This document shows, in pieces, positions 6,397 to 23,385 of a DNA stretch of 64,000 bases (its first letter is position 1; each line of letters opens with the position of its first letter). Both the position numbers and the translations under genes were made by a program. Location of the stretch: the IMG/VR virus record IMGVR_UViG_3300036781_000236, positions 23,999 to 87,998 of that record, one strand, 5' to 3'. Below the pieces are notes generated by a model. That model made no database searches, was not told where the DNA came from, and worked only from the letters and a program-made list of their open reading frames with translations. The DNA is from a virus.

Positions 6397-8328
6397 TCAG
6401 GAAGCAGTCGCGTAGGTGTATGGGCAATTGTGATCAGCATAGGGAGCTGCGACGCGTCCGCTGTCACAAGTGCTTGACACAATAGCGAGAGACTGAATCC
6501 CCACGAAAGCAGAATTCTCAAAGCTCTCACCAAATAGCTGAAATACGTTGGTGCTGTTCAACACGGAGTCGCGGACGATTCCGAGTTCGAGGACTCCGCC
6601 GTCGAGGAACAGATGGCTGCCCTCGGGGAAGAGGTACATGACGACGTTGGACGGGAACGTGTTGAGGACGCCTGCGCCCTGGGTGGCGAACACCTGTCCG
6701 CGTCCTGCTGCGCTGTCGATGTAGTACGTCGGCTCGATGTTGAAGCTGCGGAACAGTGCGGTGACCTTCGCCTCCGTGGTGTCGAACCGCTCGAACTGGC
6801 TGCGGATAACGTCGGAGACGATCAGGTCGACTGCCCAGAACGGCAGCATGAGCCGGAGGATGGCGGTGGGGTCCATGCGGTTCGCGGACCGGACACCGTT
6901 CGCGGCTGCGAGCACCTGCGAGAAGATCGTCGCGGACGCCCCAAGCCCGAGCGAACCGGCGGTGACCTGGGTGCTGTTCGTGTCGATCTGGGTGAGGAGG
7001 TTCGCCTCAGCGAGCCGTGCGTGTGCCGCGAGCGTGGTTTCGGATGCCTGAGCGACCTGCTCCGGGAAGGAGCGGGCACCGAGGTTCCCGAACTGCAAGC
7101 AGTGGTAGATGATGTCCACGTCGGTCTGGACGACTGGAGGGCAGACGACGGTGAGGCACGACTTCTGCGCGGAGGAGCCACCGGCGGCGTCCTGCGCTTC
7201 CGTGATCAGGCCGACGGCGGACGAGAAGGCGCTGAGTCCGGCGGGCTGGACGAAGATGATGCCGCCGCGGTCAGCGTTGAACGACGGCAACGCTGCCTGG
7301 ACGGGCCGCATCGGCGTCGAGAGCATCTGGAGGTTGTAGTACGGCGTCACGGGGTTGCAGAGACCACCGGCTGCGACCAGCGACTGGTCGTAGGGGTTTT
7401 CGATCTGTGCGCGCTTCAGCTTCTCGAACTGCGTCTTGATGCGCTTCGGGTCGGTGACGGACGCAACAAGCGCCATGTCATCCGTCAGACTCTCGCCCGT
7501 GAGGTGGCGATCCTCGGGATAGGTGTGCCGCCAGTCGGCGCGGGCAACGACATCGTTCTCGCGCATTCCTTCCGGGATGTGACCGTAGGAACGAAGGCGA
7601 TCCTGCATGACCTTCGCGACCTCGGTCATCGAATCGAACGCCTCACCAAGAGGCTTGATGTTCGACACCGCTGCACCAGCGGTGAGCGTCACCTTCGCGG
7701 AGCGATGCTCGCGTGGGACGTTCCCGCCGACGGGACGCGGAAGCGGGACACGAACCTGGGCGGCAGCCGTGACAGTCTCGGCCTGCGTCTTGCCCTTCGC
7801 CTTCGCCTTACCGCGAACGTTCGGCATGACCTTCTCACCCGCGGGGATACCGTCGGTCTCGCCTTCGGTGTCCTCGTCGTCCTCAGTGTCCTTCATCGCG
7901 GCCTCCGCGGCGAGCGCGGCAAGTTCGGCGTCCACGTCGGCACCCTCAGCGCCCTCCGTGTCAGCGGTCTCGTCGGTCTCGACCTCGGTGGTGTCTTCCG
8001 CCTCGGCGGTGACACGCGACGCAAGCTCGGTGCGGATCGCGCCAAGCGACTCGACAGCGGCCTTCGCCTCGGCGAGCAGGTCGGCGGGGGTGTACTCGTC
8101 CGTGACGAACTCGGCGGCGTTGTCGCGTGCGGCCTGGACACCAGCGACGATGCTCGCCTCAAGTGCGGAAAGCTCGTCGGCGCTCAGCGCCGAAAGATCG
8201 GTGGGAACGTCCGGGAAAAGGTTGTCGTCGGCGTCGCTGCCGCCGCGCATGACAGGGATCACACGGCCGCGGTAGACGCGGGCGAGGCCCTGCTCGATCA
8301 GATGCTGCTGGTGCGGGTTCATAGCCAT
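6397..8328 (-). CDS. Major capsid hexamer-type protein with acidic N-terminal scaffold-like region
   Basis: SLVAAGGLCNP..PYY, LPSFNADRGG, CLQFGN..ARSFPE, FLDGGVLELGIVRDS.LN..N motifs of Rosebush-like capsids. Confidence 0.85.
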   Translation of the reverse strand: MAMNPHQQHLIEQGLARVYRGRVIPVMRGGSDADDNLFPDVPTDLSALSADELSALEASIVAGVQAARDNAAEFVTDEYTPADLLAEAKAAVESLGAIRTELASRVTAEAEDTTEVETDETADTEGAEGADVDAELAALAAEAAMKDTEDDEDTEGETDGIPAGEKVMPNVRGKAKAKGKTQAETVTAAAQVRVPLPRPVGGNVPREHRSAKVTLTAGAAVSNIKPLGEAFDSMTEVAKVMQDRLRSYGHIPEGMRENDVVARADWRHTYPEDRHLTGESLTDDMALVASVTDPKRIKTQFEKLKRAQIENPYDQSLVAAGGLCNPVTPYYNLQMLSTPMRPVQAALPSFNADRGGIIFVQPAGLSAFSSAVGLITEAQDAAGGSSAQKSCLTVVCPPVVQTDVDIIYHCLQFGNLGARSFPEQVAQASETTLAAHARLAEANLLTQIDTNSTQVTAGSLGLGASATIFSQVLAAANGVRSANRMDPTAILRLMLPFWAVDLIVSDVIRSQFERFDTTEAKVTALFRSFNIEPTYYIDSAAGRGQVFATQGAGVLNTFPSNVVMYLFPEGSHLFLDGGVLELGIVRDSVLNSTNVFQLFGESFENSAFVGIQSLAIVSSTCDSGRVAAPYADHNCPYTYATAS

Positions 8329-8451
8329 TCCTCCTGGCGCAAAGTTGAAGTTCTCGGTTTGCGCTAGGCGGCTATGACGCCGAGCTACCCAGGAACGACT
8401 ATGGCGTTCGGGTGGGTACGCAGAATCTTACCGTGGTGCGTGGTGGCGTCC

Positions 8452-8509
8452 CTCAACCAGCGGTCGAGTGTTGTCACGCGGGCGTGACGGCATGTATCCT
8501 GCTATGCGA
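8452..8509 (+). promoter_or_regulatory. Promoter with C, A and B motifs
   Basis: CTCAACC-agc-GGTCGAG, 5 bp, TCACGCGGGCGTGA; TTGTCA-18-TATCCT; ATG at 8504. Confidence 0.65.
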
Positions 8510-8869
8510 ATGTCGAGGAACATCGTTCATCCCGAGACGGCAGAGAGAAACCGCACGGTAGGTCTTCCTGGCGGTTACACCTTCAACTCCTACACGCCAG
8601 ACGACTACGAAGGCATCACGCTTTCGTTCGGATGCGTCAGGATCGGCGATCACGCGCACATCCTTGTTGAGTCAGGCCGCGTTCTAAGGATTGTCGCAGG
8701 TGATAGCTGCCCGACCGCCAGAACTGGCGGCGCGGGAAAGCTTGTGTTGCGATGGCATGAATGGCTTGTGCTACGCGAGGTTTTGGACGCCGATCCTCGC
8801 ATCCGCATAGCTGAGATTGAGAAGCCAACCACCAAGATGGCGGCACGACACGCAGGAGGGAAGCAATGA
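8504..8869 (+). CDS. Hypothetical protein
   Basis: ORF after promoter, ATGA-coupled to the next gene. Confidence 0.6.
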   Translation: MRMSRNIVHPETAERNRTVGLPGGYTFNSYTPDDYEGITLSFGCVRIGDHAHILVESGRVLRIVAGDSCPTARTGGAGKLVLRWHEWLVLREVLDADPRIRIAEIEKPTTKMAARHAGGKQ

Positions 8870-9564
8870 GCGCGTACATCGTGGCAGTTCTTACGCCTGT
8901 CCTCGCGCGCCCTCACCGCGTTGAGCCATTGATCGCTTCCCTGCGTGCCGCGGCCACGATCACTCCATGCCGCCTGGTGTTCATCGCGACAGAAGGAGAC
9001 GACGAGGAGATCGCAGCGATCCTGCCGCACACGGGCCAGCACGGCGATGTGTGGCTGCTCACCGTCTCGCCCGAGCAGGAAGGATGGGGCAGGAAGATCA
9101 ACTTCGGGATGCGGTTCACCACCGAGCCGTTCGTCTTCACCGGGGCCGACGACCTCGACTTCCACCCCGGCTGCTTCGAACGGATGCTCGCCGCGCACCT
9201 CGAAACCCGCGCGTGCGTGATCGGAACGAACGACGAAGCTAATCCGCGCGTCCAGTCGGGCCACCACTCCACCCACATGCTCGTGTGTCGCGAATACGGC
9301 GAGTGCGGCACCGTAGACGCCCCGGACTCGGGGAATATCATGTGCGAGGCGTACGACCACAGCTTCGTTGATGACGAGTTCGTCGCGACCGCACGCGCTC
9401 GGGGAACGTACGCTCACGCGAAGGACGCTGTGGTCGCGCACAGCCACCCGAACTGGGGGACGGCCCCTACGGACGGCACCTACCAGAAGGGGCAGCGGCG
9501 CTTCGCGGAAGACCAGCGGCTGTTCCAGTCCCGCCGGTACCTGTGGGAACAGCGGCTCGCGTGA
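8866..9564 (+). CDS. Glycosyltransferase (GT-A/GT2-like)
   Basis: VAVLTP..RP, KINFG, FTGADDL (DxD-like), HSFVDDEF, VAHSHP. Confidence 0.85.
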   Translation: MSAYIVAVLTPVLARPHRVEPLIASLRAAATITPCRLVFIATEGDDEEIAAILPHTGQHGDVWLLTVSPEQEGWGRKINFGMRFTTEPFVFTGADDLDFHPGCFERMLAAHLETRACVIGTNDEANPRVQSGHHSTHMLVCREYGECGTVDAPDSGNIMCEAYDHSFVDDEFVATARARGTYAHAKDAVVAHSHPNWGTAPTDGTYQKGQRRFAEDQRLFQSRRYLWEQRLA

Positions 9565-9684
9565 CGCGCCCCCAAGCCATCATCGTCGTCGTCTGCTCCG
9601 TGTTGGCGTGCCTGCTGGGTTTGCTCGGTGCGTTCGCTAAAGCGATGGAAGCCACCGAAAGCGCGTCCGACTAGATCACATTTC

Positions 9685-9752
9685 CCACCCTTGACTTCGT
9701 ATAGCAGGGTCGGTACGCTTTCCGGCGTCACGATCCAACCAATCTAGGAGGG
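9685..9752 (+). promoter_or_regulatory. Sigma70-type promoter with motif B in spacer and conserved leader
   Basis: TTGACT-tcgtatagcagggtcgg(17)-TACGCT; leader GTCACGATCCAACCAA..GGAGG. Confidence 0.8.
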
Positions 9753-9759
9753 TGAGCAA

Positions 9760-10510
9760 ATGAAGTCCACCACTACCGAGGATCTTTGCCGGGAGCGCAC
9801 ATCGCTTCGGATGCAGCGCGACGCTTTCAGCGCAGGCCACGAGCCGGCTTCTGTCATGAACCGCCTGCGAGAGATCGAACGGGAGCTTGCTCGTCGCCGA
9901 ACTGCGTAGCTTTGCGGATCGTCGCCTACTGGGCGGCGGTTCGGAGCGCTACCGCTCCCGAAGCAGGAGGGTGAGATACATGAAAGACGCAGTGAAGGAA
10001 ATGACCGTGCCGACGAAAGCGCACAATCTGTGCTTGCTGCCGGTGTTCGAGAACGGCATCAAGGTCGCAAACTGCACCCATCCTCGCGGTACAGAGCATT
10101 TCCACGAGGTTTGGACGAAGAACACCGAGCCCGCTAAGGAGGCGTCGTGAGCCACGGGGCGTTGGTGTTCGTCGCCTGGGCCATGACCCACGGCATGAGG
10201 TGCTGGAGCGAAGTTCACTTGTACGGTGGGCCGTTGGTGGGGACGTGGCGGGAATGGCTGTGCAAATGAGCGCGGACAAGCTCTCAGGATGGGTCGCTGT
10301 CGGCGGCACTCACCCGCTTCGTGGCTTGACGCTATACGGGCCATTCAATACAGCCGACGAAGCGTCGGAATGGGCTAATGAGGAGCTGGGCCAGGTCGGG
10401 GATTGGTGGATCGAGGAGCTTTGGGCGGCGGAGGAGAAGTCATGACTTCGGAGCCGAAGCTGGACGCTGCCGTTGAGGCTCACCGTGCGGTAGAGACGCT
10501 AAGGACTTAG
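9760..10510 (+). CDS. Chain of small ORFs (9760-9909, 9980-10150, 10147-10269, 10266-10445, 10442-10510)
   Basis: GGAGG RBSs and overlapping stop/start codons, bounded by promoter and terminator. Confidence 0.55.
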
Positions 10511-10558
10511 CGGCGGGTGGATCGTGACTGAACCCTCCCTGGTACGCCGCTAACGAAC

Positions 10559-10580
10559 GAGGCCCCCGCAAGGGGGCCTC
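10559..10580. terminator. Bidirectional terminator
   Basis: GAGGCCCCC-GCAA-GGGGGCCTC between convergent genes. Confidence 0.8.
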
Positions 10581-10583
10581 TGT

Positions 10584-11291
10584 TCATCCAGGCCCGAGCG
10601 TCCAATCCACATACAGGGCGCAGTCATCCATGGGGAAGCACACGGCGACACGGCCTGGGTCCACACCCAATCGGTGCTTCTTCCCGAGCAGCGACTGCAC
10701 CAGGTCGGGATGCTGCACGAGGGACGGGACCGACCCGAGCGGTGTCTCGCCGTGGTCGCGGAGGAACCTGCCGATGATCTCATCATCGGCGACGAACGAC
10801 TCGGGCCACAGCTGTTCGTCCACATAACGGAGCAGGGGGTGGATGAGCCGCACGGGCCAGCACGTAGCTACGGCGCTACACCAACGTGCGGTGGTGAGTT
10901 CCGCCCACGACACCCCTCGGGCGCACGCGCGCTCCATCGCCTGCTTATGCTCGTACGGGTTCCCGCTCACGTGGAACACGAGGACCCTGTCCGGCCTCGC
11001 CACTATCGCAGCGACCAGGGCTTCCGTGAAGCCCTGACATAGCTCACCGTCGTCCTGCACGACCATGCGGTGCGTCGGTGCGCCTGCGTTCGTGAATCCG
11101 CACCCGAACCCTGGTGTCGCCTCAAGCACGGCACGGTAGGTGCGCCACGGCGACCGGCGCGGATGATCGGGGGTCGGGTCGAACACCACGTCCGCGCCTG
11201 TAGCGGCGGCGAGTGCAGCGGCCATGTCAGCGCGTGCGGGCGACGCTTGTATCCCGATGCTAACCCTCAACCCAACGTTTAGGTCTATCAC
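10584..11291 (-). CDS. Glycosyltransferase of actinophage type
   Basis: IQASPAR, MVVQDDGELC.GF, ADDEIIGRF, VPSLVQHPD motifs; lies in structural operon. Confidence 0.7.
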   Translation of the reverse strand: MIDLNVGLRVSIGIQASPARADMAAALAAATGADVVFDPTPDHPRRSPWRTYRAVLEATPGFGCGFTNAGAPTHRMVVQDDGELCQGFTEALVAAIVARPDRVLVFHVSGNPYEHKQAMERACARGVSWAELTTARWCSAVATCWPVRLIHPLLRYVDEQLWPESFVADDEIIGRFLRDHGETPLGSVPSLVQHPDLVQSLLGKKHRLGVDPGRVAVCFPMDDCALYVDWTLGPG

Positions 11292-11309
11292 GCGCGCGTG
11301 ACGGGCCTG

Positions 11310-13001
11310 CTATAGCAAGCCGAGCGCGATGAGTTCCGCGATCTCCGCCAGGTCACGGTCGTCCAACGGCTGCTCGCCGAGTCTGCGTGCCACCCACCCT
11401 GCGGGGAAGCCGCTCCCGCCGACACCAGCCGCCACAGTAGGGATCGGCGCTGGGATCGCGGTGAGGAGTGCTGCCAACGCGCCTTCCCCACCGAGCAGCG
11501 CAACCAGACGCTGGTACTCCGTCACCGTGACACTCAACGCACCCGCACCGGCGAGCGAGGCGACAAACCGCTGATACGGGGTGATCGTTGCGTTCAACGC
11601 CCCCGTGCCCATTAGGGACGCAGCGAACCGCTGGTACAAGGTCATCGACGCGGCGAGCGACCCAGCACCTACCATCGCGGCCGTGAACCGCTTATACGGC
11701 GTCACCGCAGCCGACAGAGCACCCACGCCTGCCAGTTGCGGAGCGAGCCGCTGATATGGCGTTACTGTCGCAGACAAAGCACCCGCGCCTGCGAGGGATA
11801 CGAGTATTTGAACGAGCGGGTTGTAGTCCACCGATGCCCACACGTTCGTGACACCAACCGCTTGAAGGTTGATCACGGACTGCAAATAGCCGATCTGCAT
11901 TGATGTGAGCGTCGCGGCTGTCCACGCGCCACCGTCCGGGTCCAGGTACGTGACCAACGGGTAGTACGACGCCCCTGGCTGTGTCGGGTTCGTCGTCCAC
12001 GTCACCGTGTTCGGAGCCAACGACGCCGACATAGCCTTCGTGCCACCACTTGTCTTCTCGATCTGCACCTTCACCGCCGCCGTCGCATCCGCACCAACAA
12101 GGTCAGCGATCCTGCCGCCAACGCACAGCGTGTTGATCGTGTCGAGTGACCCGACCCCAGACGCCCCGACCGCGAACAGGTCGCTCGCGTTCAAAACCGC
12201 AGACGCGTTATACGAGGTCGCGTCGTCCGGCGGCACCTCATTCACCCTAGTCCAGTTATTCGCTGACCCAGCCGTACCTCCCACTTGCACAGGGAACGTG
12301 TTGCTATCACCTGGCGCTGCGGGATGAAGATGGATGATCTTTCCCGGCCCGCACCACGAGTTCTGCACTGACCCTGTAGCGTCATTCACGGCAAGATCGT
12401 CTGCGTACATCACTCCCTGAGTTACTGTAGAGTTAGGCAATCCAACCTGAAATCTCGCCGTAGAACCAGCAACATTGTTAACACCAGACCCAATCACGAT
12501 TCCAGCCGTACCTGGATCGTTACCTGACGTTCCACAATCTGTATATCTCGCCTCATATGTACACGGAGAAACAGTGGCATCTACCTTGAACTCAATACGA
12601 TACCAATGTCCTACCTGAACAATACCGTTAGCGGTATTACCAATGATAGTTCCACCTGTCTGCTGCAAGAAAAGAGCGCCGTTTCCGTTAGTTGCAATGC
12701 TTCCCTGTGCTCCACCTCCTATCGCAGCCCATTGTGCAAATATCTTACGGTTTCCTCCCTCTGAAATAAGAGTGTCGAACAATACATATGCTCTAGAGTA
12801 GAAAACCGCGGATTGGTTCGTCTTAGCAAACGCCCAGTTGATTGTCTGAGCAGCACCAGAAGGCGCGAACTTCCAAGACGCCAGTCCTGACCGAACTTTT
12901 GCGGCTGTCGTAGAGATCGTTACACCAGCAGAAACGGTGTCTGCTTCAACACCTGCGGTGGCGCTCTGAAGTTCTGCTCCGCTTTGCAGGAGACGGGCCA
13001 T
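11310..13001 (-). CDS. Virion structural/fibre-like protein with C-terminal 20-aa repeats
   Basis: Beta-rich lectin-like N-terminal part (GHWYRIEFK, YADDLAVND); 5-6 repeats like AGAGALSATVTPYQRLAPQL. Confidence 0.6.
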   Translation of the reverse strand: MARLLQSGAELQSATAGVEADTVSAGVTISTTAAKVRSGLASWKFAPSGAAQTINWAFAKTNQSAVFYSRAYVLFDTLISEGGNRKIFAQWAAIGGGAQGSIATNGNGALFLQQTGGTIIGNTANGIVQVGHWYRIEFKVDATVSPCTYEARYTDCGTSGNDPGTAGIVIGSGVNNVAGSTARFQVGLPNSTVTQGVMYADDLAVNDATGSVQNSWCGPGKIIHLHPAAPGDSNTFPVQVGGTAGSANNWTRVNEVPPDDATSYNASAVLNASDLFAVGASGVGSLDTINTLCVGGRIADLVGADATAAVKVQIEKTSGGTKAMSASLAPNTVTWTTNPTQPGASYYPLVTYLDPDGGAWTAATLTSMQIGYLQSVINLQAVGVTNVWASVDYNPLVQILVSLAGAGALSATVTPYQRLAPQLAGVGALSAAVTPYKRFTAAMVGAGSLAASMTLYQRFAASLMGTGALNATITPYQRFVASLAGAGALSVTVTEYQRLVALLGGEGALAALLTAIPAPIPTVAAGVGGSGFPAGWVARRLGEQPLDDRDLAEIAELIALGLL

Positions 13002-13014
13002 CGCCCCTCCTACT

Positions 13015-13554
13015 CTACGTCTCGGTGATCGACTCAGCCCCAGACACAATCTGGGGAGTGTCACCGGGGTTGATCGCTGTGCTAGTGATAGAGCACCAGT
13101 ACAGGATGTTTCCGCTCGATGCTGCGTCTAGGATCGCGAAGTAGGTGACGGTCTGCAACGACCCAGCGTTCGTGCCGAACGTGATCGCGACGCTGTTTGT
13201 CGTCGCCGACCCCGCGGTCGAGGTGCTGTAGTTCGACGTGTTCGCGGTGACCGCTACACGGGCGTACCCTGTGTAGGAAGCCTCACCGCTCGAAGCGCCC
13301 GTAGACGACGCCGACAGCGCCGATGTCCACAACGCCTGGTAGAGCGTCGCGGGTGGCGTGTATGTGGTGGCGTTGAAGATCGCGTTCAGCAGCTTGCTGA
13401 CCAAATATTGGCTCTTGCCCGTCACCCACCGCACGAGGTCGCGGAGACCTGTAGAGGTCGGCTTGAACACCACCGCGCCGCCCGTCACGCGGGCGTGATA
13501 GACCCGGCCGTCGCGGCCGTGCCACACCAACCCGTCCAGCGATACAGCGGTCAC
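13015..13554 (-). CDS. Small virion structural protein (actinophage gp80-like fibre family)
   Basis: YLVSKLLNAIF...YTPPATLYQAL, GYARVAV, FAILDAASSGN pattern. Confidence 0.7.
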   Translation of the reverse strand: MTAVSLDGLVWHGRDGRVYHARVTGGAVVFKPTSTGLRDLVRWVTGKSQYLVSKLLNAIFNATTYTPPATLYQALWTSALSASSTGASSGEASYTGYARVAVTANTSNYSTSTAGSATTNSVAITFGTNAGSLQTVTYFAILDAASSGNILYWCSITSTAINPGDTPQIVSGAESITET

Positions 13555-13829
13555 TGTGTGCTCCTGATGTCGTCCAGCACCTTCTGCACGGCGGTCATCT
13601 CGTCGGGGGTGACGCTAACCATCGGAGAGCCGTCAGCAGGCACCAGGAGTGCGTACCGTTCATGCTTCCGGTCAGACCACGACTCGTCACCATCGGTAGA
13701 GACGCGATAGGTGCCGTCGTCGTTCAAGTACAGCCGTTCCCCAAGCGCGTCATAACCCGTGGCAGGGTCGGTGACGACCGAGTAGTGCCACCCGTCCTGG
13801 TAACACACCGGACCCGTGTAGACGGTCAC
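13551..13829 (-). CDS. Hypothetical protein
   Basis: GTGA-coupled on both sides. Confidence 0.6.
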   Translation of the reverse strand: MTVYTGPVCYQDGWHYSVVTDPATGYDALGERLYLNDDGTYRVSTDGDESWSDRKHERYALLVPADGSPMVSVTPDEMTAVQKVLDDIRSTQ

Positions 13830-15931
13830 GTGGCGTCCTCGGTGACGTAGGACTTCGCGCCGGTTTCAGCGTCGTACTCCACCCGGACACGACGCGCAGA
13901 CGCAGCAACAGGCTCAGGGGTCGTGACATGCACATCGACCTGGGCGGCTGGGACATGAACGTCGATTTTCTGCTCAGGCACGTTCACGATGATAGGCGAA
14001 GGCTCCGCCGCCGCCTGCTCCGGCACATGCACCGTGACGTTCGCGACAGGAGCGGGCTGCACAGGCATGTGAACGTCGAAGCGTGGCTCCACCTTCGACC
14101 CCTCCACCGTCACCGCCAAATCGTGCTGTGGGACGTGAACGTGGATGTCGCCAAGTTGGGGCGCTGCGGGTGCAGGACGCGAGGCGAACTCGCGAAGCAC
14201 CCCGAGCGCCGTCAATGCCAATGCGTCCCCGGTGCCGTGCGTGCGCTCCGTATGCGCAGACGCGACGAGGGACGCGATCCCTTCCGTGGTTGCCTTGTGA
14301 GACGCCGCGAGTGCTTCGATACCGGCGCGCAACGCAGGTGACTCCGCTACGTGCGGCAGCGACGCGACGAGCGCCGACACGTCTGGGGAATCAGAGAGAA
14401 GGTTCTGTGTGTCCCCTTCGAGTTCGAGCGGCTGCGTGGCGAGTTCCAGAAGCGTCGCGAACTCAACCTCAGCGGCCGTCTCGTCGGCCTGCTGCTTCTC
14501 CTCCGCTTCCTCCGCGATCCACCGCTCCACATTCGGGAGCGTGAACACGCCTTCGTCGCCTCCTTCCACCCGCGCGGCCACATCGGAGTGGATAGGCTCC
14601 GCGAGTTCAAGGTGCCAGTACTGCAACGCTTGGTCGACGGGATCGAATCCTGTCTCCTGCCCTTCGAGGACACGGTCTTCCTCGTGCTCTGCCCAGTAGG
14701 CGTTCAAGGCTTCCTGGGCGTCCACGGCGATCTCTTCGATCATCACGCCAGCGTGAACATCATGGGCGGCCGCGACCATAGCTTCGTCGTCTGTGGTGAT
14801 TGCTTCCGCACCATTGTTCTTGCGTGCGTACAACTCCGCGAGGGTCGCGCCTTCCACGGCGTCCTCACCAGCCCATGCTGCTACTTCGTCGGCGGTCATC
14901 GGCAGGAACTCGATCTGCGACGCGCACCGTCCCGGCCGGGTGACGGCAGGATGCAGCGTCCCGAGTTCGTCGTTCGTCGTGACCAGCGCGAGTACCCGGA
15001 GGCCCTGCCCGATCATGCCGTCCACTACGTTCAGGAGCCGCGACAGTCCCTGCCCGTACTTCTCCTTCGCGGTAGCGGACAGCAGCTCCCCCGTGTCTTC
15101 CAGGATGAGGACACGCCACTTCCCGAGCGGGTTGCTTTCCGCGTACACGTCGCCGCTGACGGGTTCGAGCATGTCGTAGCTGTCCGCGAGCAGCACGTTG
15201 ATCATGTAGGAGGGGTCGTCCACGAAGAACGAGTCGGGGTCGGTGATGTAGTGGAACTCGGCCCACGGTGCCCACTGCGACGCAAGCGCCCGGAGCGCCC
15301 ACGACTTCCCTGTGCCGGGCTGTCCCTGCCAAAGCAGCAGCTGGCCGTCAACCGTCTCGGGTGCGTCCCACGCCATGAGCGACCCGAGCGAGTCACGGAC
15401 ATGGGAGGTGTAGTTCTGCTCGATGTCGCCCCACTGTGCGGACTCCACACGACGGAGGCGCGGGATAGGGCCGTGCTTGCTGTTCGCCCAGAACGTGATC
15501 GGGACGGTCGCGTTGTCCTGCGTCAGATACGACGCGGGATACGCCTGCCTGAATGCAGCGCATGCGGTGTCTACCTGCGTCTGACTGTCTCCTGCGACGC
15601 GCACATTGAACCAACCGTCCCCGATGCTGATAAGCGCGAGCGCACCGCTGTTTGTCGCTACAACCGCCGATCCCCTGTCTACGAACAGCACGTTCTTGGA
15701 CGGAAGCCCTGCGCTACTAGCTTCGATAGGCCACGAGTCGCCGCCCCAAACCGGCGACTCCCTCTGCAACGCGTGCTCCTTGAAGAACTTCTCCGCTGCT
15801 CCGCCGTACAACATGTCGTACGTCGGGAGCATCGCTGGGGCCGCAGCCGTGAGGCTACGGAACGCGGCACGGCGACGCTGCGAAAGCGTGCGCGGCTGCC
15901 GCTGCCCGACCTTCACACTGGCGCGACCCAC
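13826..15931 (-). CDS. AAA+ ATPase (DUF5925-like) with C-terminal VHVP-repeat tail
   Basis: Walker A GQPGTGKS, Walker B VLILED, LSRLLNVVDG, RPGRC Arg finger; tail IHVHVP/VTVHVP/IDVHVP...RRVRVEYD. Confidence 0.85.
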   Translation of the reverse strand: MGRASVKVGQRQPRTLSQRRRAAFRSLTAAAPAMLPTYDMLYGGAAEKFFKEHALQRESPVWGGDSWPIEASSAGLPSKNVLFVDRGSAVVATNSGALALISIGDGWFNVRVAGDSQTQVDTACAAFRQAYPASYLTQDNATVPITFWANSKHGPIPRLRRVESAQWGDIEQNYTSHVRDSLGSLMAWDAPETVDGQLLLWQGQPGTGKSWALRALASQWAPWAEFHYITDPDSFFVDDPSYMINVLLADSYDMLEPVSGDVYAESNPLGKWRVLILEDTGELLSATAKEKYGQGLSRLLNVVDGMIGQGLRVLALVTTNDELGTLHPAVTRPGRCASQIEFLPMTADEVAAWAGEDAVEGATLAELYARKNNGAEAITTDDEAMVAAAHDVHAGVMIEEIAVDAQEALNAYWAEHEEDRVLEGQETGFDPVDQALQYWHLELAEPIHSDVAARVEGGDEGVFTLPNVERWIAEEAEEKQQADETAAEVEFATLLELATQPLELEGDTQNLLSDSPDVSALVASLPHVAESPALRAGIEALAASHKATTEGIASLVASAHTERTHGTGDALALTALGVLREFASRPAPAAPQLGDIHVHVPQHDLAVTVEGSKVEPRFDVHMPVQPAPVANVTVHVPEQAAAEPSPIIVNVPEQKIDVHVPAAQVDVHVTTPEPVAASARRVRVEYDAETGAKSYVTEDAT

Positions 15932-15934: not shown

Positions 15935-18106
15935 CTACGCCTCGATGGAATCAGCGAGTTCCGCGATCTCGGCCATCGCGGCCTGGCACTCCGCACCGCA
16001 CACGATCCCGGCGGCCGTCAAAGACATCACCTCGGGTGCTTCACCCGACGCGACCACGGATGCGCGGGTGCGGGGGATCGGGAACCCAGGCACGTTGACG
16101 GCGAGCGCGGCGACGAGTTCGAGGTTGCCGTTCACGTTCCGCCAGTCCCCCGACAGTTTCGCTGCCCGCAACACACGGATCGTTTCCTCCGACGTGCCGG
16201 GACGAACAGCCCCCGCGACCCAGATGCCGTGCTCGTCCTCACCGCACGCCACATCCGCCACCACAGTGCCTGTGTGGTCGTAATGGGCGGCCGCGGCGGC
16301 CTGACCCAACCCCGATGACGCATGGCCGGTGCCGAGGGTGATGTTCCCGACTGGGACACGCTCCCCGTCCGCACAGGCGATCTCACCGAGCATGTAGTAG
16401 GCGTAATCGGTCTTCGACCGTGGCGCGTACACGTGGTTGTCTGGGAACGCGATGTGCGGGACGTTCCACTCAGCAGCATGGCCGTACACCTGCCCGTCGT
16501 CGGTGACGGTGAGCGGCTGCGGCCCGTCGAACTCGGGGTTCGCGAACCACTCCACGGGCGGGCGAACGGGGATCTCGGTCTCGACCGCGGAAGCGACCAG
16601 AGCCGCAGCGTTCCGTACCGGGGTGACGCGGTAGCCGCCCTGCGACGTGACTGTCCACATCGCTTCGAGCTGCGTCGAAGCGACCAGCGACGACGCAAGC
16701 TGGATCGTGGCTTCAGCGAACGCCTGGAACGGGCACGCGGTCGCCATACCGATAGTGGCGTCAGCGACGACGATGATCGTGTCGTCGCCCTTCTCCCCAA
16801 ACGCGATGTCGATGAGGGAGGGTGCGTCGGTTTCGTCGTCGGGCTTCGGTGCCCACACGCCTTCCGCGTCGAACCAGTCGCTTTTCGGCCCCACATCGTA
16901 CTGATGCACCGCCAAGTCCACGCTGATGCCGCGCAACGTGCCATCTCCGACCATGCGGGCGATCATCTGCCCGAACTCGCCGTCATCGAACACACCCGAC
17001 GCCTGGATCAGATTCCCTTCGCGCCAGATGTTGTCGATCCGTCCCGCGACCTGAGCGCCATCGTGGCCGCCCTCCGCAGACGTTTCGACCAGGCCCATGA
17101 GGGTGAGCGGCAGGTCACGCCACGAGATGCTGTCAGGAGCGAACGCACGGTTGTCCGCCGTCATCGCGGCCTCCGGTGCAAGGGTGGCGGTCCACTGCAT
17201 CTGCGCAGATGCCTTATCCGAACCTGTCGGCACCTTCGTGATGTCAGGCAAGCGCGGCGACGGGTTCCGCTTCGGGATACGACTCGACGGCTTATGCGCG
17301 TCGATCAGCGGAATACCGTCGTCGCCCGCGAACGTGAGAGCGAATCGTGCGAGGGTGTCACGCAACGGTGTGTCCTGACCGTCACGGACAGTGACGTACT
17401 CCGCGATCTCCGCGATCAGGCCGTCCACCGCAGCGGCAGCGAGGTCTTCGCCGTCCATGTCCGTCGTCTCGAATCCGTCGCAGTCACAACCGAGGGCGGA
17501 GCATGCACCCATGTTGCCGTCGCCGCCATGCATGCCGTCAGGGTGGCCGCAGTCACCGTCAGCGCACACCGCCGTGTTCGCGACGGCTGCCAACTCCTCT
17601 GTGTCGGCCTCGGCATTCGCGTTGTCGTCCTTCCACGGCACGGTGATGGTGTCGTCCTCGTACTTCTTCGCGGCTGCCTTGTAGTAGCCCTCCACTGCCG
17701 TCTTGATCTTGGCCTTGTCGGCGTCCGGGATGTCAGCGCCGCCACGGGCACCCGAAAGCACACCCGCGACCGCGGTGACAGCCTTCCAGACGGCGTGCTT
17801 GCCGCCGTCCTTCGACACGAACGGGAACTTGTACGACGACTTGACCGCAGGGTCACCGTCGGAGTCCTTCCACATGAAGCAGTCCGCGTCGGCGGGAAGT
17901 TCGTAGTCCTTCGTGGCCGCGGGGCCGTCCCACGCCTCGTCGCGCGCGCCGAGCGGAAGACCGTCCGCTCCGCTCGCGTCAGCGGTGATCGCCGCGAGTT
18001 CCGCGACCTGCTCCTCAGTGAACGCAGGGATGCGCTTCTCGGCCGCCACACGTGCGGCGGCCCTACGTGCCCTACGACGAGCCTGTGCGGCTCCAGATCC
18101 AGCCAT
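15935..18106 (-). CDS. Capsid maturation protease (Rosebush-like) with N-terminal extensions
   Basis: TADNRAF, GHDGAQVAGRID, LRGISVD, VYGHAAEW, GEDEHGIWVAG, LSGDWR, ALAVNVPGFP. Confidence 0.85.
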   Translation of the reverse strand: MAGSGAAQARRRARRAAARVAAEKRIPAFTEEQVAELAAITADASGADGLPLGARDEAWDGPAATKDYELPADADCFMWKDSDGDPAVKSSYKFPFVSKDGGKHAVWKAVTAVAGVLSGARGGADIPDADKAKIKTAVEGYYKAAAKKYEDDTITVPWKDDNANAEADTEELAAVANTAVCADGDCGHPDGMHGGDGNMGACSALGCDCDGFETTDMDGEDLAAAAVDGLIAEIAEYVTVRDGQDTPLRDTLARFALTFAGDDGIPLIDAHKPSSRIPKRNPSPRLPDITKVPTGSDKASAQMQWTATLAPEAAMTADNRAFAPDSISWRDLPLTLMGLVETSAEGGHDGAQVAGRIDNIWREGNLIQASGVFDDGEFGQMIARMVGDGTLRGISVDLAVHQYDVGPKSDWFDAEGVWAPKPDDETDAPSLIDIAFGEKGDDTIIVVADATIGMATACPFQAFAEATIQLASSLVASTQLEAMWTVTSQGGYRVTPVRNAAALVASAVETEIPVRPPVEWFANPEFDGPQPLTVTDDGQVYGHAAEWNVPHIAFPDNHVYAPRSKTDYAYYMLGEIACADGERVPVGNITLGTGHASSGLGQAAAAAHYDHTGTVVADVACGEDEHGIWVAGAVRPGTSEETIRVLRAAKLSGDWRNVNGNLELVAALAVNVPGFPIPRTRASVVASGEAPEVMSLTAAGIVCGAECQAAMAEIAELADSIEA

Positions 18107-18850: not shown

Positions 18851-19308
18851 GCTACGACTTCTCCGCACGTATCGACACGGGCGGCCCGTACCCGCACTAC
18901 ATCGAACCGTCCTTTGATGACACCCACCCTGGTCTAGCTACCAACGGGGTCGAGGGTTCCACCGTGGCCTTCTACCCGGAGGGAGGTTACACCCGCATCG
19001 GGAACTACACCTCGAATGTCTCCCCGATCTGGGCGCGCTGCCTCACGAAAGCCGCGCTCAGCATCCGGTACCCGAAGCACCTCCCAGACGGGGATATGTG
19101 GCTGTCCGACATCGACGGCGAACGCCTCGGTGACATCACGACGCTTCTCCACGCCGCCGTCGAGTACGGCATCGACCACCTCGAAGATCTGCGCGAACTG
19201 GAACCCGAGAACAGGTGGGGAAACGCGGAAGGCGCGATCACCTACCTGTGGGACATCCAGCGGTTCAGCGAGATGCACCCCAACGCGTTCCTGAGTCTGA
19301 ATCGCTAA
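18847..19308 (+). CDS. Conserved-looking phage protein
   Basis: GNYTSNVSPIW...PENRWGNAEGA..YL motif; followed by terminator. Confidence 0.7.
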   Translation: MSYDFSARIDTGGPYPHYIEPSFDDTHPGLATNGVEGSTVAFYPEGGYTRIGNYTSNVSPIWARCLTKAALSIRYPKHLPDGDMWLSDIDGERLGDITTLLHAAVEYGIDHLEDLRELEPENRWGNAEGAITYLWDIQRFSEMHPNAFLSLNR

Positions 19309-19373
19309 AAGCTTCTCGGCTGGTGCAGGGATCGTGACAGTTCTCCTGCCTCCAAGCCGCCGAGGATGAGCAG

Positions 19374-19393
19374 ACGGCCCCGCAAGGGGCCGT
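19374..19393. terminator. Bidirectional terminator
   Basis: ACGGCCCC-GCAA-GGGGCCGT. Confidence 0.8.
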
Positions 19394-19401
19394 TACGCTT
19401 T

Positions 19402-21066
19402 CTACTCCGCTTCCGCGTCGTCCCCGCTCATATAACCAAGCGTGCAACGACAGTTGATCACCGATCCCGCCTCACCGGATGGGTCACCTGGGAACATGAG
19501 CGAGTCGCCGTCCACGTCGAAAGGAGCGTCGAGGGGCTGCGTTTGTCCGTCAAGCCCGTCCACAAGTTCATGGCGCGGGTAGATAGCTCCCTCGGCGGTC
19601 ATCCACACCTTGCTTAGCTTCGAGTTCCCGCCGGTCGCGGCGTCAATGGCTTGTGTCGCGGCGAGGCTCCCGCCCCCTGTGGCCCCGGCGAGGGTGGTGC
19701 GGGCGATAGTGACAGCGCGGGTGTAAGACTGCTCGTTCATCCCTACCTGGATCGCCCTAGCGGTGTCCGGGATCGACAAGCCCTGGTCGTAGGACGCCTG
19801 CACGATCTTCGTGACGTTGTCCAACGTCGTCTGCGCGATGTTAGGGATCTGGCTCGCGGTGTTCGCGATCTCCTTCGCGACATACGGGTTGCTCACATCG
19901 AAGCTGACCCCTGCGCTTTCCAAACTGGCTTGTGTGACCGAACGAACCATCGCCTGCCGGACAGGCTCCGTCTTCGTGCGTAGCGAGAAGATCAGCGCAT
20001 CCACGTCCAGCATTTCGGCAGGGGCCGGGGCGCTCCACACGGGGTTACCGGCGGACGCCGCGTACAGATCAGCTTGGGCGTCGCGGAGGTTCGCCTTCGC
20101 CGCCTCAACATGCTCGGGGCTGCTTCCGTCGGATAGGGCGGTGCGGAGTTCGCCCTTAGCTTCCTCGACGGCCTTGTGGCGTGCCGCCAACTGCTCCGGG
20201 GTGAGCGTGGCGGGAGGCTGCTTCTTCGCGGCTGCGGCCGTCAACGGCAATCCCCCGGTGAGCGGCAGCGTGATCTCGACCTGGTCGCCCCGGACTACGT
20301 AGAGCGCATCGAACGTCAATGGAAGCCCGAACACCGTTGCGGTGTCGGGCGCGTCGGGTGTGCCAGTGGATGCGTGCGCTTCGAAGCCGTGGTCGCGGGC
20401 GTACTCGACCCCGTACTTCACCAGTGCCTGCGTCACCGCTACCCGCAGTTCGACCAGACCTGGTACGTCGGGAAGGAGGATGCCGATGGTGTCGCCGTCT
20501 GGTTTCCCGAACTCGCCGCTACCTGCCACCACACCCGTCAGGGGACCGCAGTTCGCAGCGACCAACCGCAATGCGTCACCAAGCATGTCGAGTGGCCCAT
20601 CGATCTCCCCGAGCGACGCCAATGTGACGTGCAGCATCCCCGCTGGGTCACCGCCAGGGACAGTGAGCGCAGCGGATTGCTCCGCAGTAGGTTTCAGACA
20701 AACCATCGTGCTCAACGGTGTCGGAGCCGCCGCCGTCAACGCCAATGACGCAACGAGCGACCGGACATCAGCGGGCGCGAGTCCTACGAGCGCCGCCATG
20801 TCCGCGTCCCGACGTGCCGAAGCGGTGAGGTGGTTCGTCACTGTCGCCGTGAAGTTCGCGGCTGCGTCACGGCCTGCTTTCCGCAGGATCGGTTCGAGCA
20901 CCTTCACCATCCGCGGCACCAGATCGTCGGCGCGCTTATACCCAGCCTGGATGACACGGTTGTGGTGCGCCGCCGATGGTGCGACAGGGACAGCCTTCTC
21001 TGGCTTCGGCTGCGTCGCTTCCACCGCTTCCGCGGTGGTCTCCTTGACGGAGCGGTACTCGGGCAT
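19402..21066 (-). CDS. MuF-like minor head protein with internal 2H-phosphoesterase domain
   Basis: C-terminal RAVTIARTT, KVW...RH..DGQ..PLDAPF...FPGDP..INCRC (MuF); internal HVTL and HAST 2H motifs. Confidence 0.85.
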   Translation of the reverse strand: MPEYRSVKETTAEAVEATQPKPEKAVPVAPSAAHHNRVIQAGYKRADDLVPRMVKVLEPILRKAGRDAAANFTATVTNHLTASARRDADMAALVGLAPADVRSLVASLALTAAAPTPLSTMVCLKPTAEQSAALTVPGGDPAGMLHVTLASLGEIDGPLDMLGDALRLVAANCGPLTGVVAGSGEFGKPDGDTIGILLPDVPGLVELRVAVTQALVKYGVEYARDHGFEAHASTGTPDAPDTATVFGLPLTFDALYVVRGDQVEITLPLTGGLPLTAAAAKKQPPATLTPEQLAARHKAVEEAKGELRTALSDGSSPEHVEAAKANLRDAQADLYAASAGNPVWSAPAPAEMLDVDALIFSLRTKTEPVRQAMVRSVTQASLESAGVSFDVSNPYVAKEIANTASQIPNIAQTTLDNVTKIVQASYDQGLSIPDTARAIQVGMNEQSYTRAVTIARTTLAGATGGGSLAATQAIDAATGGNSKLSKVWMTAEGAIYPRHELVDGLDGQTQPLDAPFDVDGDSLMFPGDPSGEAGSVINCRCTLGYMSGDDAEAE

Positions 21067-21271
21067 CTGGACGCCCAACCCTAAACCTCTACTTGACCCT
21101 CATCACGCGGGCGTGATTCGCCCATCACCGCAGCCTGCAACCGGCGAAGCTCGGATGCCTTCACCACTTCCTCGCCACCAGACTCGTCCCACGCCAATGC
21201 GCCGCCATGACCGCGCTGCTCTTTGACGACAGCCTCGGCGTTCGCGCAACGCGTCTCACGTGTCATGTCCA

Positions 21272-21439
21272 TCACTGCTTCCTCCGTGGCGGTGAACCAT
21301 CGATCTTGTCGAAAGCCCGCTCGGACGCCTTGCCTACCTCATCGACAGTGGTCTCTACCGCCTCGACAGCTTCCGCGACGATGGTCAACGGAGCCGTGAT
21401 GACTTCACCGACGATCCTCCCGAGAAGCTTCCCGATCAC
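21272..21439 (-). CDS. Small hypothetical protein coupled to portal
   Basis: GTGA overlap with the portal stop. Confidence 0.5.
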   Translation of the reverse strand: MIGKLLGRIVGEVITAPLTIVAEAVEAVETTVDEVGKASERAFDKIDGSPPRRKQ

Positions 21440-23385
21440 GCCGTCACCTTCCCGTTCGCAGCGGCAGCAACCCTGTTCGTCAACGACGCCGACACCGGGG
21501 CCGGGAGCGTCTCGAACAAAGTTCGTGACGCGTGCAACTCGACGTTCGACACGAACAACTCCACCATCGCCGTGTCCGTGACGTGACATGACCGCAACGC
21601 TTCCTCGATCATCCCTCGCGCACCCGCGACCAGCTGCGCAGGCTGCTGCTTCGTCAACGTCTTCACGCGATCCGCACCCAGGGTAGCCGCGACAAGGTTC
21701 GCGCGTACCCCGTCGATCAACGCCAACGCGTCCGGGTCCTTCTTCGCGAGGGACCGGAGCTTCGACCCGGCGAGTTCGCGGGCACGATACACCGCCAGTT
21801 CCGCCGCGATAGACACGGCCGCCGTCGCGGCCGATCCGATCACCTCGCCGCTGATCGGCTGCGGCGGCTTTCCCTTCGTCGTCTCCGACGCCGACCCGCC
21901 AGGGCCACGCACCGGAGCGGACGTTACGCCACCCGATCCGCCATCCGCACCACCTGTGTCCGGGGTTTCGAGCACGCCAGGCGCGATCTCCAGTTCCGAC
22001 CCTGGACGCAGTGACGGTGTCCCGTACACCGCCAAACCAGGGTCGCGGAGCTTGATCCCCAAGTACACGTTCCGTTCCTCAGGGGACGGCGCATCGGCGT
22101 CATCGAACCCCTTCGACTTCCGGTACGTGTCATCGCTGATCGTGCCCCGGTCGAACGCCTCATCAGCAGCAGCGCCCCGGTCAGGGTGGTTGATGATCGC
22201 GGACGCGTCGTAGTCGATGCAATAGGTCTGCCAATCAGCGACACCCATATCGCTAAGGTAGGGACGCAGGTAGGACTGCGTGAGGTCGGACACCAACTGT
22301 TGCGCCATCGGCTGCAAGTGCGCCTTCCACGTGCTCTCATCGACCTGCCATGCGTTCCAGTGCGTCAGGTCCCCCATCCCTGTCAGGATCTCCGCTGGAA
22401 GGTCGAGTCCGATAGCGATACGACGGATGCATTCCTCCCTCAATCCTGTCTCCGGATACAGCTGCACTGGGTCGACAAGCTCCATGTGGTACACAAGATC
22501 CTTGAGGGATTTATTTTCTGGGACAGGGACGCGCATGATCAGCGGAACAACAGCGGACGCTGACCCTTCGTTCTCGATGGAGGCAGTCATAGCGTCCGTC
22601 AGGTCCTGCAAGAAAATGTCGTTCAACGGGTCTTCGTCACCCAGCGGTTCTAGCGGGGTCTGTGACAGGGCGTCGTCTATCCACAGAATCCCGTTCCCTG
22701 CCTGCCGTGAACGGGCGCGCGCGCGGACGACGGCGGTGAGTAGCACGAGTTCTTCCACGAGCAGGAGGACACCGGCCATTGAGGAGTCCGCGAGTGCCGA
22801 CCACCTCGGCGACCGCTTCCACAGCCTGTACGCGACAGCGCTGTCGTCATCAACGGGGAAGAAATCCTCGTCCTTCACCTCGTGGTAGTTCTGGATCATG
22901 ATCGACGGTGCGCGGTACCGCATGATCACGCCGTCCATGACGCGCAACTCGTCGGTGGACAGAACCTCCCACTGCTCCAACCCGGTGAACGGGTCGTTGC
23001 TCACGAGGAGGTACGCCTCCCCGGTGAGAAACATGAGTTTGCCGTACTGCTGCTGCAACCCGTTCCGCTGCCCCTTACCTCCGCCGGGGTCCTGGATACG
23101 GGCGAGCGCGTCAACGACGTTCTGATTCGTGGTGGGCTTGATCTCCCCGTCAGGTTGGATCTGCGCAGGTAGCAGCGTCAGTAGGCTCATGGCGTGCCCG
23201 ACGTAGTTCGCGGCGTACTTGATCTCCCCCACCATGTCGTAGTACGACAGGGCGCGGGTCTGCCACGGCTGGATCAGGCGGCGCATGATCTGCGCGTCCC
23301 GCTGATGCACCCGTACCCCGGCGGCCGTCAACGATGCGGGATTACCGATCCGCATCCCTGGCTTCTTGCGGCTAAACCACCCCAC
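21436..23385 (-). CDS. Portal protein
   Basis: WQTRALSYYDMVGEIKYA, GEAYL, SRQAGNGIL, SAVVPLI, RRIAIGLDLPAEILTG, HWNAWQ motifs of Rosebush-like portals. Confidence 0.88.
   Translation of the reverse strand: MGWFSRKKPGMRIGNPASLTAAGVRVHQRDAQIMRRLIQPWQTRALSYYDMVGEIKYAANYVGHAMSLLTLLPAQIQPDGEIKPTTNQNVVDALARIQDPGGGKGQRNGLQQQYGKLMFLTGEAYLLVSNDPFTGLEQWEVLSTDELRVMDGVIMRYRAPSIMIQNYHEVKDEDFFPVDDDSAVAYRLWKRSPRWSALADSSMAGVLLLVEELVLLTAVVRARARSRQAGNGILWIDDALSQTPLEPLGDEDPLNDIFLQDLTDAMTASIENEGSASAVVPLIMRVPVPENKSLKDLVYHMELVDPVQLYPETGLREECIRRIAIGLDLPAEILTGMGDLTHWNAWQVDESTWKAHLQPMAQQLVSDLTQSYLRPYLSDMGVADWQTYCIDYDASAIINHPDRGAAADEAFDRGTISDDTYRKSKGFDDADAPSPEERNVYLGIKLRDPGLAVYGTPSLRPGSELEIAPGVLETPDTGGADGGSGGVTSAPVRGPGGSASETTKGKPPQPISGEVIGSAATAAVSIAAELAVYRARELAGSKLRSLAKKDPDALALIDGVRANLVAATLGADRVKTLTKQQPAQLVAGARGMIEEALRSCHVTDTAMVELFVSNVELHASRTLFETLPAPVSASLTNRVAAAANGKVTA

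Follow-up and report, generated by a model that had tools for sequence, protein, structure and literature searches.

The head gene module studied here lies in the final 64,000 bases (the window, meaning that whole stretch at its full length) of IMGVR_UViG_3300036781_000236, a single-contig virus record of 87,998 bp with 62.6% G+C and an IMG/VR completeness estimate of 92%. Its source is an uncultured 88-kb phage of actinobacteria, and the minus strand carries almost all genes. Within the module, the gene order is portal, MuF-like protein with an N-terminal 2H phosphoesterase (MuF-2H), protease, AAA+ ATPase, fibre-like and glycosyltransferase genes, and then the major capsid protein. As shown in Table 1, five of the encoded proteins share a short Ala-rich peptide, which we defined strictly as [LMV][TV]A[AS][AG]. 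A first-pass annotation had proposed that this peptide marks cleavage sites of the head protease and belongs to a system for releasing packaged enzymes. In the phage collection, 877 records contain a homolog of the protease and 806 one of the capsid protein, all at less than 60% identity. The phages bearing them are mostly phages of Mycobacterium, Gordonia, Microbacterium, Arthrobacter, and Streptomyces, with hosts spanning five genera.

Table 1. Genes, motif sites, and domains of the head module, in gene order (aa, amino acids; arrows mark predicted cuts; window positions count from the first base of the 64,000-base stretch).
Feature	Residues	Window positions	Strand	Basis
Portal protein, 649 aa		21436..23385	-	phrog_776, E 3.5e-98
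Portal site SLTA↓AG	19-24	23314-23334	-	motif; predicted cut removes basic 21-aa leader
MuF-like head protein with N-terminal 2H phosphoesterase, 558 aa		19402..21078	-	phrog_2468, E 5.8e-38
MuF site HLTASA	84	20812-20832	-	motif
MuF site SLVASL	108	20740-20760	-	motif; absent from the first-pass list
MuF site ALTAAA	114	20722-20742	-	motif
Predicted 2H enzyme fragment	117-281	20236-20730	-	between sites 114 and 279
MuF site PLTAAA	279	20227-20247	-	motif
Predicted MuF domain fragment	282-558	19405-20235	-	after site 279
Head protease polyprotein ("capsid maturation protease"), 749 aa		15935..18184	-	phrog_859/18402
Protease N-domain, assemblin/gp21 fold, His374 and Ser421	325-498	about 16691-17212	-	AlphaFold2 and fold search
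Protease site SLVAS	500	16670-16690	-	motif
Protease site ALVASA	529	16583-16603	-	motif
Protease C-domain	535-698	about 16091-16582	-	part kept in all relatives
Protease site SVVASG	710	16040-16060	-	motif
Protease site SLTAAG	722	16004-16024	-	motif
Protease C-terminal helix	731-748		-	AlphaFold2
DUF5925 and AAA+ ATPase protein, 701 aa from GTG start		13826..15931	-	Pfam DUF5925 and AAA
ATPase leader site SLTAAA	27	15836-15856	-	motif
Folded DUF5925 and AAA module	45-383	about 14783-15799	-	AlphaFold2
ATPase site AMVAAA	385	14762-14782	-	motif
ATPase helical domain	393-500		-	AlphaFold2
ATPase site ALVAS	521	14354-14374	-	motif
ATPase site SLVASA	555	14252-14272	-	motif
ATPase disordered VHVP repeats	587-679		-	predicted
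Major capsid (hexamer) protein, 643 aa		6397..8328	-	NCBIfam MCP_Sipho, E 1.8e-83; phrog_777, E 9e-65
Delta domain of capsid protein	1-319	7372-8328	-	ahead of capsid fold
Capsid site TVTAAA	186	7756-7776	-	motif
Capsid site TLTAGA	215	7669-7689	-	motif
Capsid site ALVASV	287	7453-7473	-	motif
Capsid site SLVAAG	317	7363-7383	-	motif, delta/N-arm junction
Predicted mature capsid protein, starts AGGLCNP	from 320	6400-7371	-	predicted cut
Probable capsid pentamer protein, 336 aa		4465..5475	-	phrog_779; Antonia and Halo3 homologs annotated major capsid pentamer protein
Pentamer protein candidate site AMTA↓SE, weak	47	5320-5340	-	motif-like

All 16 peptides quoted by the first-pass annotation were present in the translations of the five minus-strand genes, and 12 of them match the strict pattern. 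Our own crude gene call over the full 87,998 bp gave 120 genes that cover 82% of the genome, and we compared the five head proteins with the rest. The enrichment expected of a head-specific motif was evident: 12 strict sites occurred in the head proteins (3,300 aa) and none in the other 115 (20,737 aa; Fisher p = 4e-11), where independent and identically distributed residues would yield 0.62 and 2.4 sites, respectively. Neither shuffling of whole proteins (0/2000) nor local shuffling within stretches of 10, 15, 20, 30, or 50 aa (0/3000 at each of the five sizes; means of 0.65-0.78) ever reached 12 sites. When the ATPase was not counted in advance as a head protein, there were 9 sites in 2,599 aa versus 3 in 21,438 aa, all three of them in the ATPase. 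The reversed pattern was not enriched (4 in head proteins versus 15 elsewhere, p = 0.26). Counted as exact 4-mers, LVAS (6 versus 1) and LTAA (5 versus 2) occurred more often in the head set than any other. Since the codons differ between sites, a repeat at the DNA level can be ruled out as the source; the motif is a protein motif, with selection acting on the peptide.

The pattern was defined after inspection of these same five proteins, and the p-values therefore flatter it; recurrence in relatives provides the independent test. To this end we used 79 IMG/VR loci (labelled L0xx) that were found with the protease. Five-residue sites numbered 257 in 168 homologs of the head proteins (105,978 aa) and 35 in 770 other open reading frames (ORFs; 180,449 aa), or 2.43 versus 0.19 per 1000 aa, with inherited sites included in these counts rather than independent events alone. 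The reversed control gave 0.94 versus 0.53 per 1000 aa. Homologous positions kept their sites even where protein identity fell to 25-40%, with cultured phages of Mycobacterium, Gordonia, Arthrobacter, and Streptomyces among the distant relatives that do so. The residues flanking true sites differed from those flanking chance hits (P4 Ala/Ser in 52% versus 24%; P2' Gly/Ala in 63% versus 27%). Across 148 head homologs, 11 sites fell within stretches aligned to conserved domains and 209 outside them, a partly circular comparison, because we drew the domain boundaries around the sites of this phage. The portal's N-terminal site, which follows a basic leader, matched the strict pattern in 14/26 homologs and a loose one in 17/26. 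Four cultured phages (Arthrobacter phage Atuin, Mycobacterium phage Antonia, Gordonia phage Halo3, and Salete) carry the motif in their head proteins, the last three of them also at the portal N-terminus, and Halo3 has 8 sites in 2,433 aa of head proteins versus 3 in 8,301 aa elsewhere.

The best-conserved site lies in the capsid protein. This protein matched NCBIfam MCP_Sipho (NF033847) with 281.6 bits (cut-off 75) and has an N-terminal extension ahead of the matched fold; distant tblastn matches start at residues 315-317. In a sample of 120 metagenomic homologs with 35-79% identity, the four-residue core of the junction site at 317 was kept in 103/120. A319, G321, and G322 were invariant in 51 sequences, and the corresponding junctions of the four cultured phages read [SA/L]-[LI]-[VI]-A-[AS]-G-G. 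Within the delta domain, the cores at 186 and 215 were kept in 88/117 and 81/118 homologs, forming conserved islands in an otherwise unalignable acidic sequence.

We next consider the protease gene, for which AlphaFold2 predicted two confident domains in residues 301-749, an N-domain and a C-domain (mean predicted local distance difference test score, pLDDT, of 80.4). All four motif sites fall in the sole two long segments with pLDDT < 50, residues 499-534 and 699-728. A fold search with the N-domain (residues 319-501) against 48,161 chains returned varicella-zoster virus (VZV) protease (Z 10.5, root-mean-square deviation 2.5, 110 aa), T4 gp21 (Z 10.1-10.2, 124 aa), and human cytomegalovirus (HCMV) protease (Z 8.5-9.3) as the top three, followed by an unrelated fold at Z 6.0. 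Pseudorabies pUL26N scored Z 10.2, and Foldseek matched the Epstein-Barr virus protease (E = 8.6e-3, probability 0.99). Across 42 sequences, His374 was at least 90% conserved and Ser421 was invariant. The N-domain also aligned by hhalign in register with residues 20-165 of HK97 gp4 over 139 columns, a weak match (E = 0.0025, probability 4.8%) that placed His374 and Ser421 on His65 and Ser114, the catalytic residues of gp4.

The C-domain is the better conserved part, with 52-57% identity where the N-domain has 28-46%. It was present in 79/79 loci and has invariant His569, His577, His621, and His634 and an invariant Ser678 region. A site no more than 30 residues before it matched the strict pattern in 41/61 homologs, most of the others having near variants such as LMAAA or VLASA, and nearly all homologs have a double site after it (..[LV][VA]ASG.. 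followed by [SA]LVAAG). Comparison of the two domains with each other by hhalign gave no significant similarity, and the C-domain matched HK97 gp4 locally over just 17-31 columns. A His...EDE-G...Ser spacing in the C-domain that resembles gp4 was not significant, and we did not rely on it. Searches of the PDB by sequence and by profile with the protease, the ATPase, and the capsid protein returned nothing.

Motif sites also lie at the edges of two other enzyme modules, as the first-pass annotation had noted: the 2H segment sits between MuF sites 114 and 279, and the ATPase module between sites 27 and 385. The phrog_2468 "head morphogenesis" match covers residues 360-552 of MuF-2H. This phage's MuF protein has no match to Pfam Phage_Mu_F, for which homologs in relatives score above or near the cut-off. 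Its 2H domain scores 17.8 bits against Pfam 2_5_RNA_ligase2, below the cut-off of 27, and the homolog in L004 scores 59.4; both H-x-T/S motifs are intact (HVTL at 150, HAST at 235). In Gordonia phage Halo3, a stand-alone 192-aa 2H gene aligns to residues 125-277 of MuF-2H. This gene (gene 18; L083 8607-9185) starts M-T-A-A-G, the motif with Met for Leu, and looks like the product of gene fission at a former cleavage site.

The ATPase protein matched Pfam DUF5925 (35.3 bits, cut-off 27) and AAA (31.7 bits, cut-off 21.2) and has a Walker A motif at 203 (GQPGTGKS), a Walker B motif at 274 (VLILED), and RPGR at 332. Its AlphaFold2 model (mean pLDDT 74.9) shows a compact module at 45-383 that contains no site, with site 385 in a linker of pLDDT < 50 and sites 27, 521, and 555 in regions of pLDDT 56-70. 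Among 120 homologs, there was 1 site in 39,524 aa of core, compared with 61 in 6,925 aa of N-terminal parts and 93 in 22,138 aa of C-terminal parts. The closest folds were YjoB (Z 14.2, 280 aa, with model residues 45-383) and Bcs1 (Z 14.0, 306 aa, with residues 6-379), while the proteasome, p97, and spastin matched the AAA part only; Z values were tied within 1-2. By sequence models, motifs, and predicted fold, this is a classical-clade AAA+ ATPase resembling Bcs1 and YjoB. Beyond the sites, residues 587-701 (13826-14170) comprise about six (D/N)VHVP(E/Q)Q-like repeats, predicted to be disordered, and then a short beta hairpin. This C-terminal tail is retained in the L008 homolog, a 337-aa protein that is otherwise homologous and lacks the ATPase module.

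We propose, with a probability of roughly 0.7, that the phage's own capsid-maturation protease, encoded in the 749-aa polyprotein, recognizes and cuts the motif [S/A]-L-[T/V]-A-[A/S]-[G/A]. Computationally, this part of the first-pass annotation holds: the motif is enriched and conserved, its protease sites occupy disordered linkers, and the N-domain has a fold whose known herpesvirus relatives cut after Ala. The sites of herpesvirus assemblins have Ala in P1, Val or Leu in P3, and Ser or Thr in P1', as in YLQA-T and VQA-S of pseudorabies virus (PMC4498786). We placed the predicted cut at L-[T/V]-A↓[A/S] because herpesvirus assemblins cut (V/L)-x-Ala↓Ser, and consider this placement somewhat favored; the bond may instead lie one or two positions further on, behind the small residues.

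Under this reading, five proteins would come together in a procapsid: the portal, MuF-2H, the ATPase protein, the protease polyprotein, and the capsid protein, the last still carrying its 319-aa delta domain. The protease would then cut after Ala at these sites, with the P3-P1-P1' pattern of herpesvirus assemblin. The scaffold-like delta domain would be cut into 3 to 4 fragments, the remaining capsid protein would have 34 kDa and begin with AGGLC, and the portal would lose its 21-aa leader. The protease itself would be split into the N-domain, the C-domain, and a 25-aa C-terminal helix, much like the release and maturation cuts of assemblin. The same cuts would free a 16.7-kDa 2H phosphoesterase from the MuF domain and a 38.7-kDa Bcs1/YjoB-like AAA+ module from its leader and tail.

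Such a scheme would combine features of several known systems. Beyond the N-domain fold, likeness to herpesvirus assemblin (MEROPS S21) extends to the site pattern of a hydrophobic P3, any P2, Ala at P1, and Ser/Ala/Thr at P1' (compare the pseudorabies sites in PMC4498786). In pUL26, as here, a protease is followed by a site and by a tail that probably contacts the capsid protein and is removed near the C-terminus. Unlike assemblin, the protein has two tandem domains and lacks a Pfam S21 match, the scaffold function would reside in the capsid delta domain, and the same motif also marks the portal, MuF, and enzyme modules. T4 gp21, phiKZ gp175, and SPN3US gp245 likewise use one head protease and a short shared motif for many head proteins, removing N-terminal propeptides (portal, capsid, internal, and ejection proteins) along with their own C-terminal piece, and gp21 is also among the top fold matches of the N-domain. 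All three of these proteases cut after Glu. Their phages are large myoviruses with separate scaffold cores, unlike this HK97-type delta-domain actinobacterial phage with Ala predicted at P1. For gp245, the available text of PMC10052503 reports 14 sites in 9 proteins, with long propeptides cut several times.

HK97 (gp4, MEROPS S78) resembles this phage in having a delta domain fused to the capsid protein, no separate scaffold gene, an upstream protease gene, and the in-register alignment described above. The cut in HK97 follows Lys103. Here, unlike in HK97, there is no Pfam S78 match, the predicted cut follows Ala, the delta domain is three times longer, and the protease polyprotein contains another conserved domain. 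Shared head cleavage motifs in T4 and phiKZ/SPN3US and removal of the HK97 delta domain are established. Our literature search found no published cleavage motif for this actinobacterial delta-domain family, and a structural survey (bioRxiv 10.1101/2022.09.09.507160), in its accessible portion, treats the point at which the delta domain is cleaved off the mature capsid protein as unpredictable for these phages. A paper on N-terminal sequencing in Cluster J concerns a different capsid family. What appears new, judging from sequences and models, is an assemblin-like motif with Ala at P1 for this actinophage family, a tandem-domain protease, and the AAA+ and ferritin modules.

Several observations weigh against our reading. 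The phage is an uncultured IMG/VR record known from its sequence alone, the motif was defined post hoc, and the register shared with gp4 comes from a weak alignment. None of Pfam S78 (PF04586), S77 (PF03420), and S21 (PF00716) matched the protease or its domains (E up to 10) or the genome; in the S21 genome search, the controls also went unmatched. An NCBIfam prohead protease/MCP fusion match was weak (E = 0.0077, far below the cut-off). Because sequence-level matches to S78, S77, and S21 are lacking, kinship can be argued only at the level of fold. The N-domain was absent from 10 loci, of which 7 are truncated on the upstream side and 3 (L042, L057, and L071) have at least 9 kb of upstream DNA and retain the motif. 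Halo3 (L083; bases 2879-59182 of 59,182 searched) also has the C-domain and the motif without the N-domain. Hence, either the N-domain or the C-domain may be the enzyme that reads the motif.

Individual sites also fit unevenly. ATPase sites 27 and 555 lie within helices predicted with middling confidence. In the gene call that comes with the record, the ATPase begins at Met34 (668 aa), downstream of the first site, where we used a GTG located 3 bases from the protease stop codon. This GTG is probably the true start because the 33 upstream residues (window 15829-15931), a basic leader and SLTAAA, are conserved in both L002 and L004, the latter of which lacks a Met there. Capsid site 287 was poorly kept (31/120), and we rejected it as part of a conserved code. 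The candidate site of the pentamer protein was rejected as well, with 0 five-residue sites in 15 homologs, and this protein is probably outside the cut-site system.

These points bear differently on the alternatives. Chance in Ala-rich, high-GC proteins, which the first-pass annotation had raised as a caveat, is rejected: head proteins are somewhat richer in Ala (14.8% versus 11.9%), but shuffles left 0.6-0.8 sites where 12 were observed, the reversed motif was not enriched, and the sites are conserved while their surroundings diverge. Recognition by a host (actinobacterial) protease rather than a phage enzyme is highly improbable. The motif persists in phages lacking the N-domain, the sole domain here with a recognized protease fold, and A-x-A-like endings resemble signal-peptidase sites; against this, the motif is limited to head proteins whose genes accompany that of the phage protease (0/115 other proteins), occurs on both sides of the protease domains, and is found in phages whose hosts span five genera. 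We also think it unlikely that the motif is an uncut peptide for docking or capsid targeting, to which the scaffold, the portal, or a protease exosite binds and which directs proteins into the procapsid. The basic leaders ahead of the N-terminal sites in the portal and the ATPase are what a targeting signal might look like, and the two ATPase sites in predicted helices would suit it. Yet the best-conserved site is exactly at the junction of the delta domain and N-arm, where related HK97-type systems cut, the sites flank the protease domains like the R and M sites of assemblin, and each delta domain has several, as in the multiply cut propeptides of SPN3US (available text of PMC10052503).

A more serious possibility, although one we hold at less than even odds, is that the proteins are indeed cut and that the enzymes between the sites do not act as injected cargo. 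Head assembly or maturation would then be the task of the AAA+ ATPase, and perhaps of the C-domain, for example as a protease-partnered remodeller that clears the delta domain, with fragments lost before DNA packaging. The ATPase may be such an assembly or remodelling factor because it is fused to the protease in long homologs, as a single ATPase-N-domain-C-domain chain in 19/19 homologs of at least 800 aa (an arrangement like that of AAA+ proteases), and because its best whole-module folds are the chaperone-like YjoB and the protein translocase Bcs1. Its gene directly follows the protease gene, and the literature searched contained no mention of DUF5925. On the other side, no aromatic-hydrophobic-Gly pore loop was evident by eye between Walker A and B, and ADP-ribosyltransferase and ferritin domains occupy the same position with no obvious assembly role. 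Moreover, the 2H domain is of a type that is fused to MuF or portal domains and interpreted as an injected effector in the accessible part of Iyer et al. (2017, PMC5512222).

In that work (Iyer, Burroughs, Anand, de Souza, and Aravind), polyvalent MuF-effector proteins were proposed to be packaged, processed, and injected. The accessible text describes fusions of MuF with domains such as 2H and ADP-ribosyltransferase that end in an assemblin-like peptidase, and the relatives studied here show such fusions. Unlike our analysis, that text gives no cleavage motif and no AAA ATPase or ferritin modules, and this phage splits the polyprotein into three separate genes (MuF-2H, protease, and ATPase) with the sites kept. 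Relatives exchange 2H, DUF7701, AAA ATPase, and ferritin modules around the sites, as the first-pass annotation's suggested comparison anticipated. The 2H domain, found in 10/40 proteins scanned, occurs before MuF, between MuF and the protease, or with DUF7701, and MuF-2H-protease fusions occur in L014, L031, L035, L047, and L048. A ferritin/Dps-like domain (Pfam PF00210, E = 4e-11 and 1.5e-15) stands behind the protease in L018 (3208-5271) and L043 (9887-12055), directly after the conserved SLVAAG site, in 2/8 proteins scanned.

The cargo-release part of the first-pass annotation thus fared unevenly: both enzymes are bracketed and modules are swapped, but bracketing of each enzyme is not a rule because a 2,463-aa 2H-MuF-ADP-ribosyltransferase protein in L009 has only two motif sites. 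By analogy with the MuF-effector proteins, injection of the freed enzymes is plausible. A more general proposal is that whatever domain stands between a pair of L-[T/V]-A↓[A/S] sites in the MuF/protease set would enter the procapsid, be freed by the assemblin-fold protease, and be delivered with the DNA. We offer this tentatively and regard it as doubtful; the candidate modules seen in the sequences are 2H phosphoesterase, ADP-ribosyltransferase, ferritin/Dps, and the Bcs1/YjoB-like AAA+ ATPase. If true, the AAA+ module would represent a protein remodeller, driven by ATP, that a phage injects from its capsid. The C-domain would be a second capsid protease or partner of novel fold, sufficient alone in Gordonia phages without the assemblin-fold domain.

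The proposed cleavage system has consequences beyond this phage. The protease and capsid families occur in about 800-880 sequenced actinobacteriophages, among them the group around Mycobacterium phage Antonia (Bclasvirinae). Many of those that infect Gordonia, Microbacterium, Arthrobacter, and Streptomyces have been isolated in teaching programmes and are considered for therapy. The conserved L-[T/V]-A↓[A/S]-G-G junction offers a precise, testable prediction of the delta cut. The motif likewise predicts mature forms of the portal, MuF, and protease proteins, which could inform cryo-EM model building, mass-spectrometric annotation, and gene calling. It flags 2H phosphoesterase, AAA+ ATPase, ferritin, and ADP-ribosyltransferase as probably head-associated enzymes, making the proposed capsid delivery of anti-defence enzymes testable in laboratory hosts. 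If Ala-P1 specificity is true of an assemblin-fold phage protease, it would link these phage enzymes to their herpesvirus relatives through the substrate rule of the latter.

The closest syntenic relative, the 83-kb contig L004, has an intein (Pfam Intein_splicing) in its MuF-2H gene, and its portal gene is enlarged by an insertion of about 290 aa (L004 features at 5669-8632 and 2454-5498). LTA[AS]L strings in the repeats of its 584-aa fibre-like protein are motif-like but stand in a different context. In the window, a 584-aa protein (phrog_14065; 11310-13064) follows a Gp80-like head-fibre protein (Pfam PF23140; 13015-13554), with the two ORFs overlapping by 50 bases. The 584-aa protein ends in about seven tandem 19-residue repeats of the form G-x-G-A-L-x-A-x-V-T-P-Y-Q-R-F...

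Inside the head module, between the fibre-like and capsid genes, lie two glycosyltransferase genes at 8866-9564 (plus strand) and 10584-11291 (minus strand), with matches to Pfam Glycos_transf_2 and phrog_854 (glucosyltransferase). Virion proteins may be their glycosylation targets. An HNH endonuclease gene (5616-6311) lies on the plus strand between the genes for the capsid hexamer and probable pentamer proteins. A PADLOC search returned nothing. At the DNA level, the head region matches isolated phages only at 9646-9760, with 84-95% identity to 10 Gordonia phage records, in which it falls within genes annotated as RNA ligase or capsid maturation protease. In the window this segment is intergenic and resembles a promoter (TTGACT, 17 bases, TACGCT) with a ribosome-binding site, followed by a small plus-strand ORF. 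A similar start region, with AGGAGGGTGAG, is repeated at about 9961.

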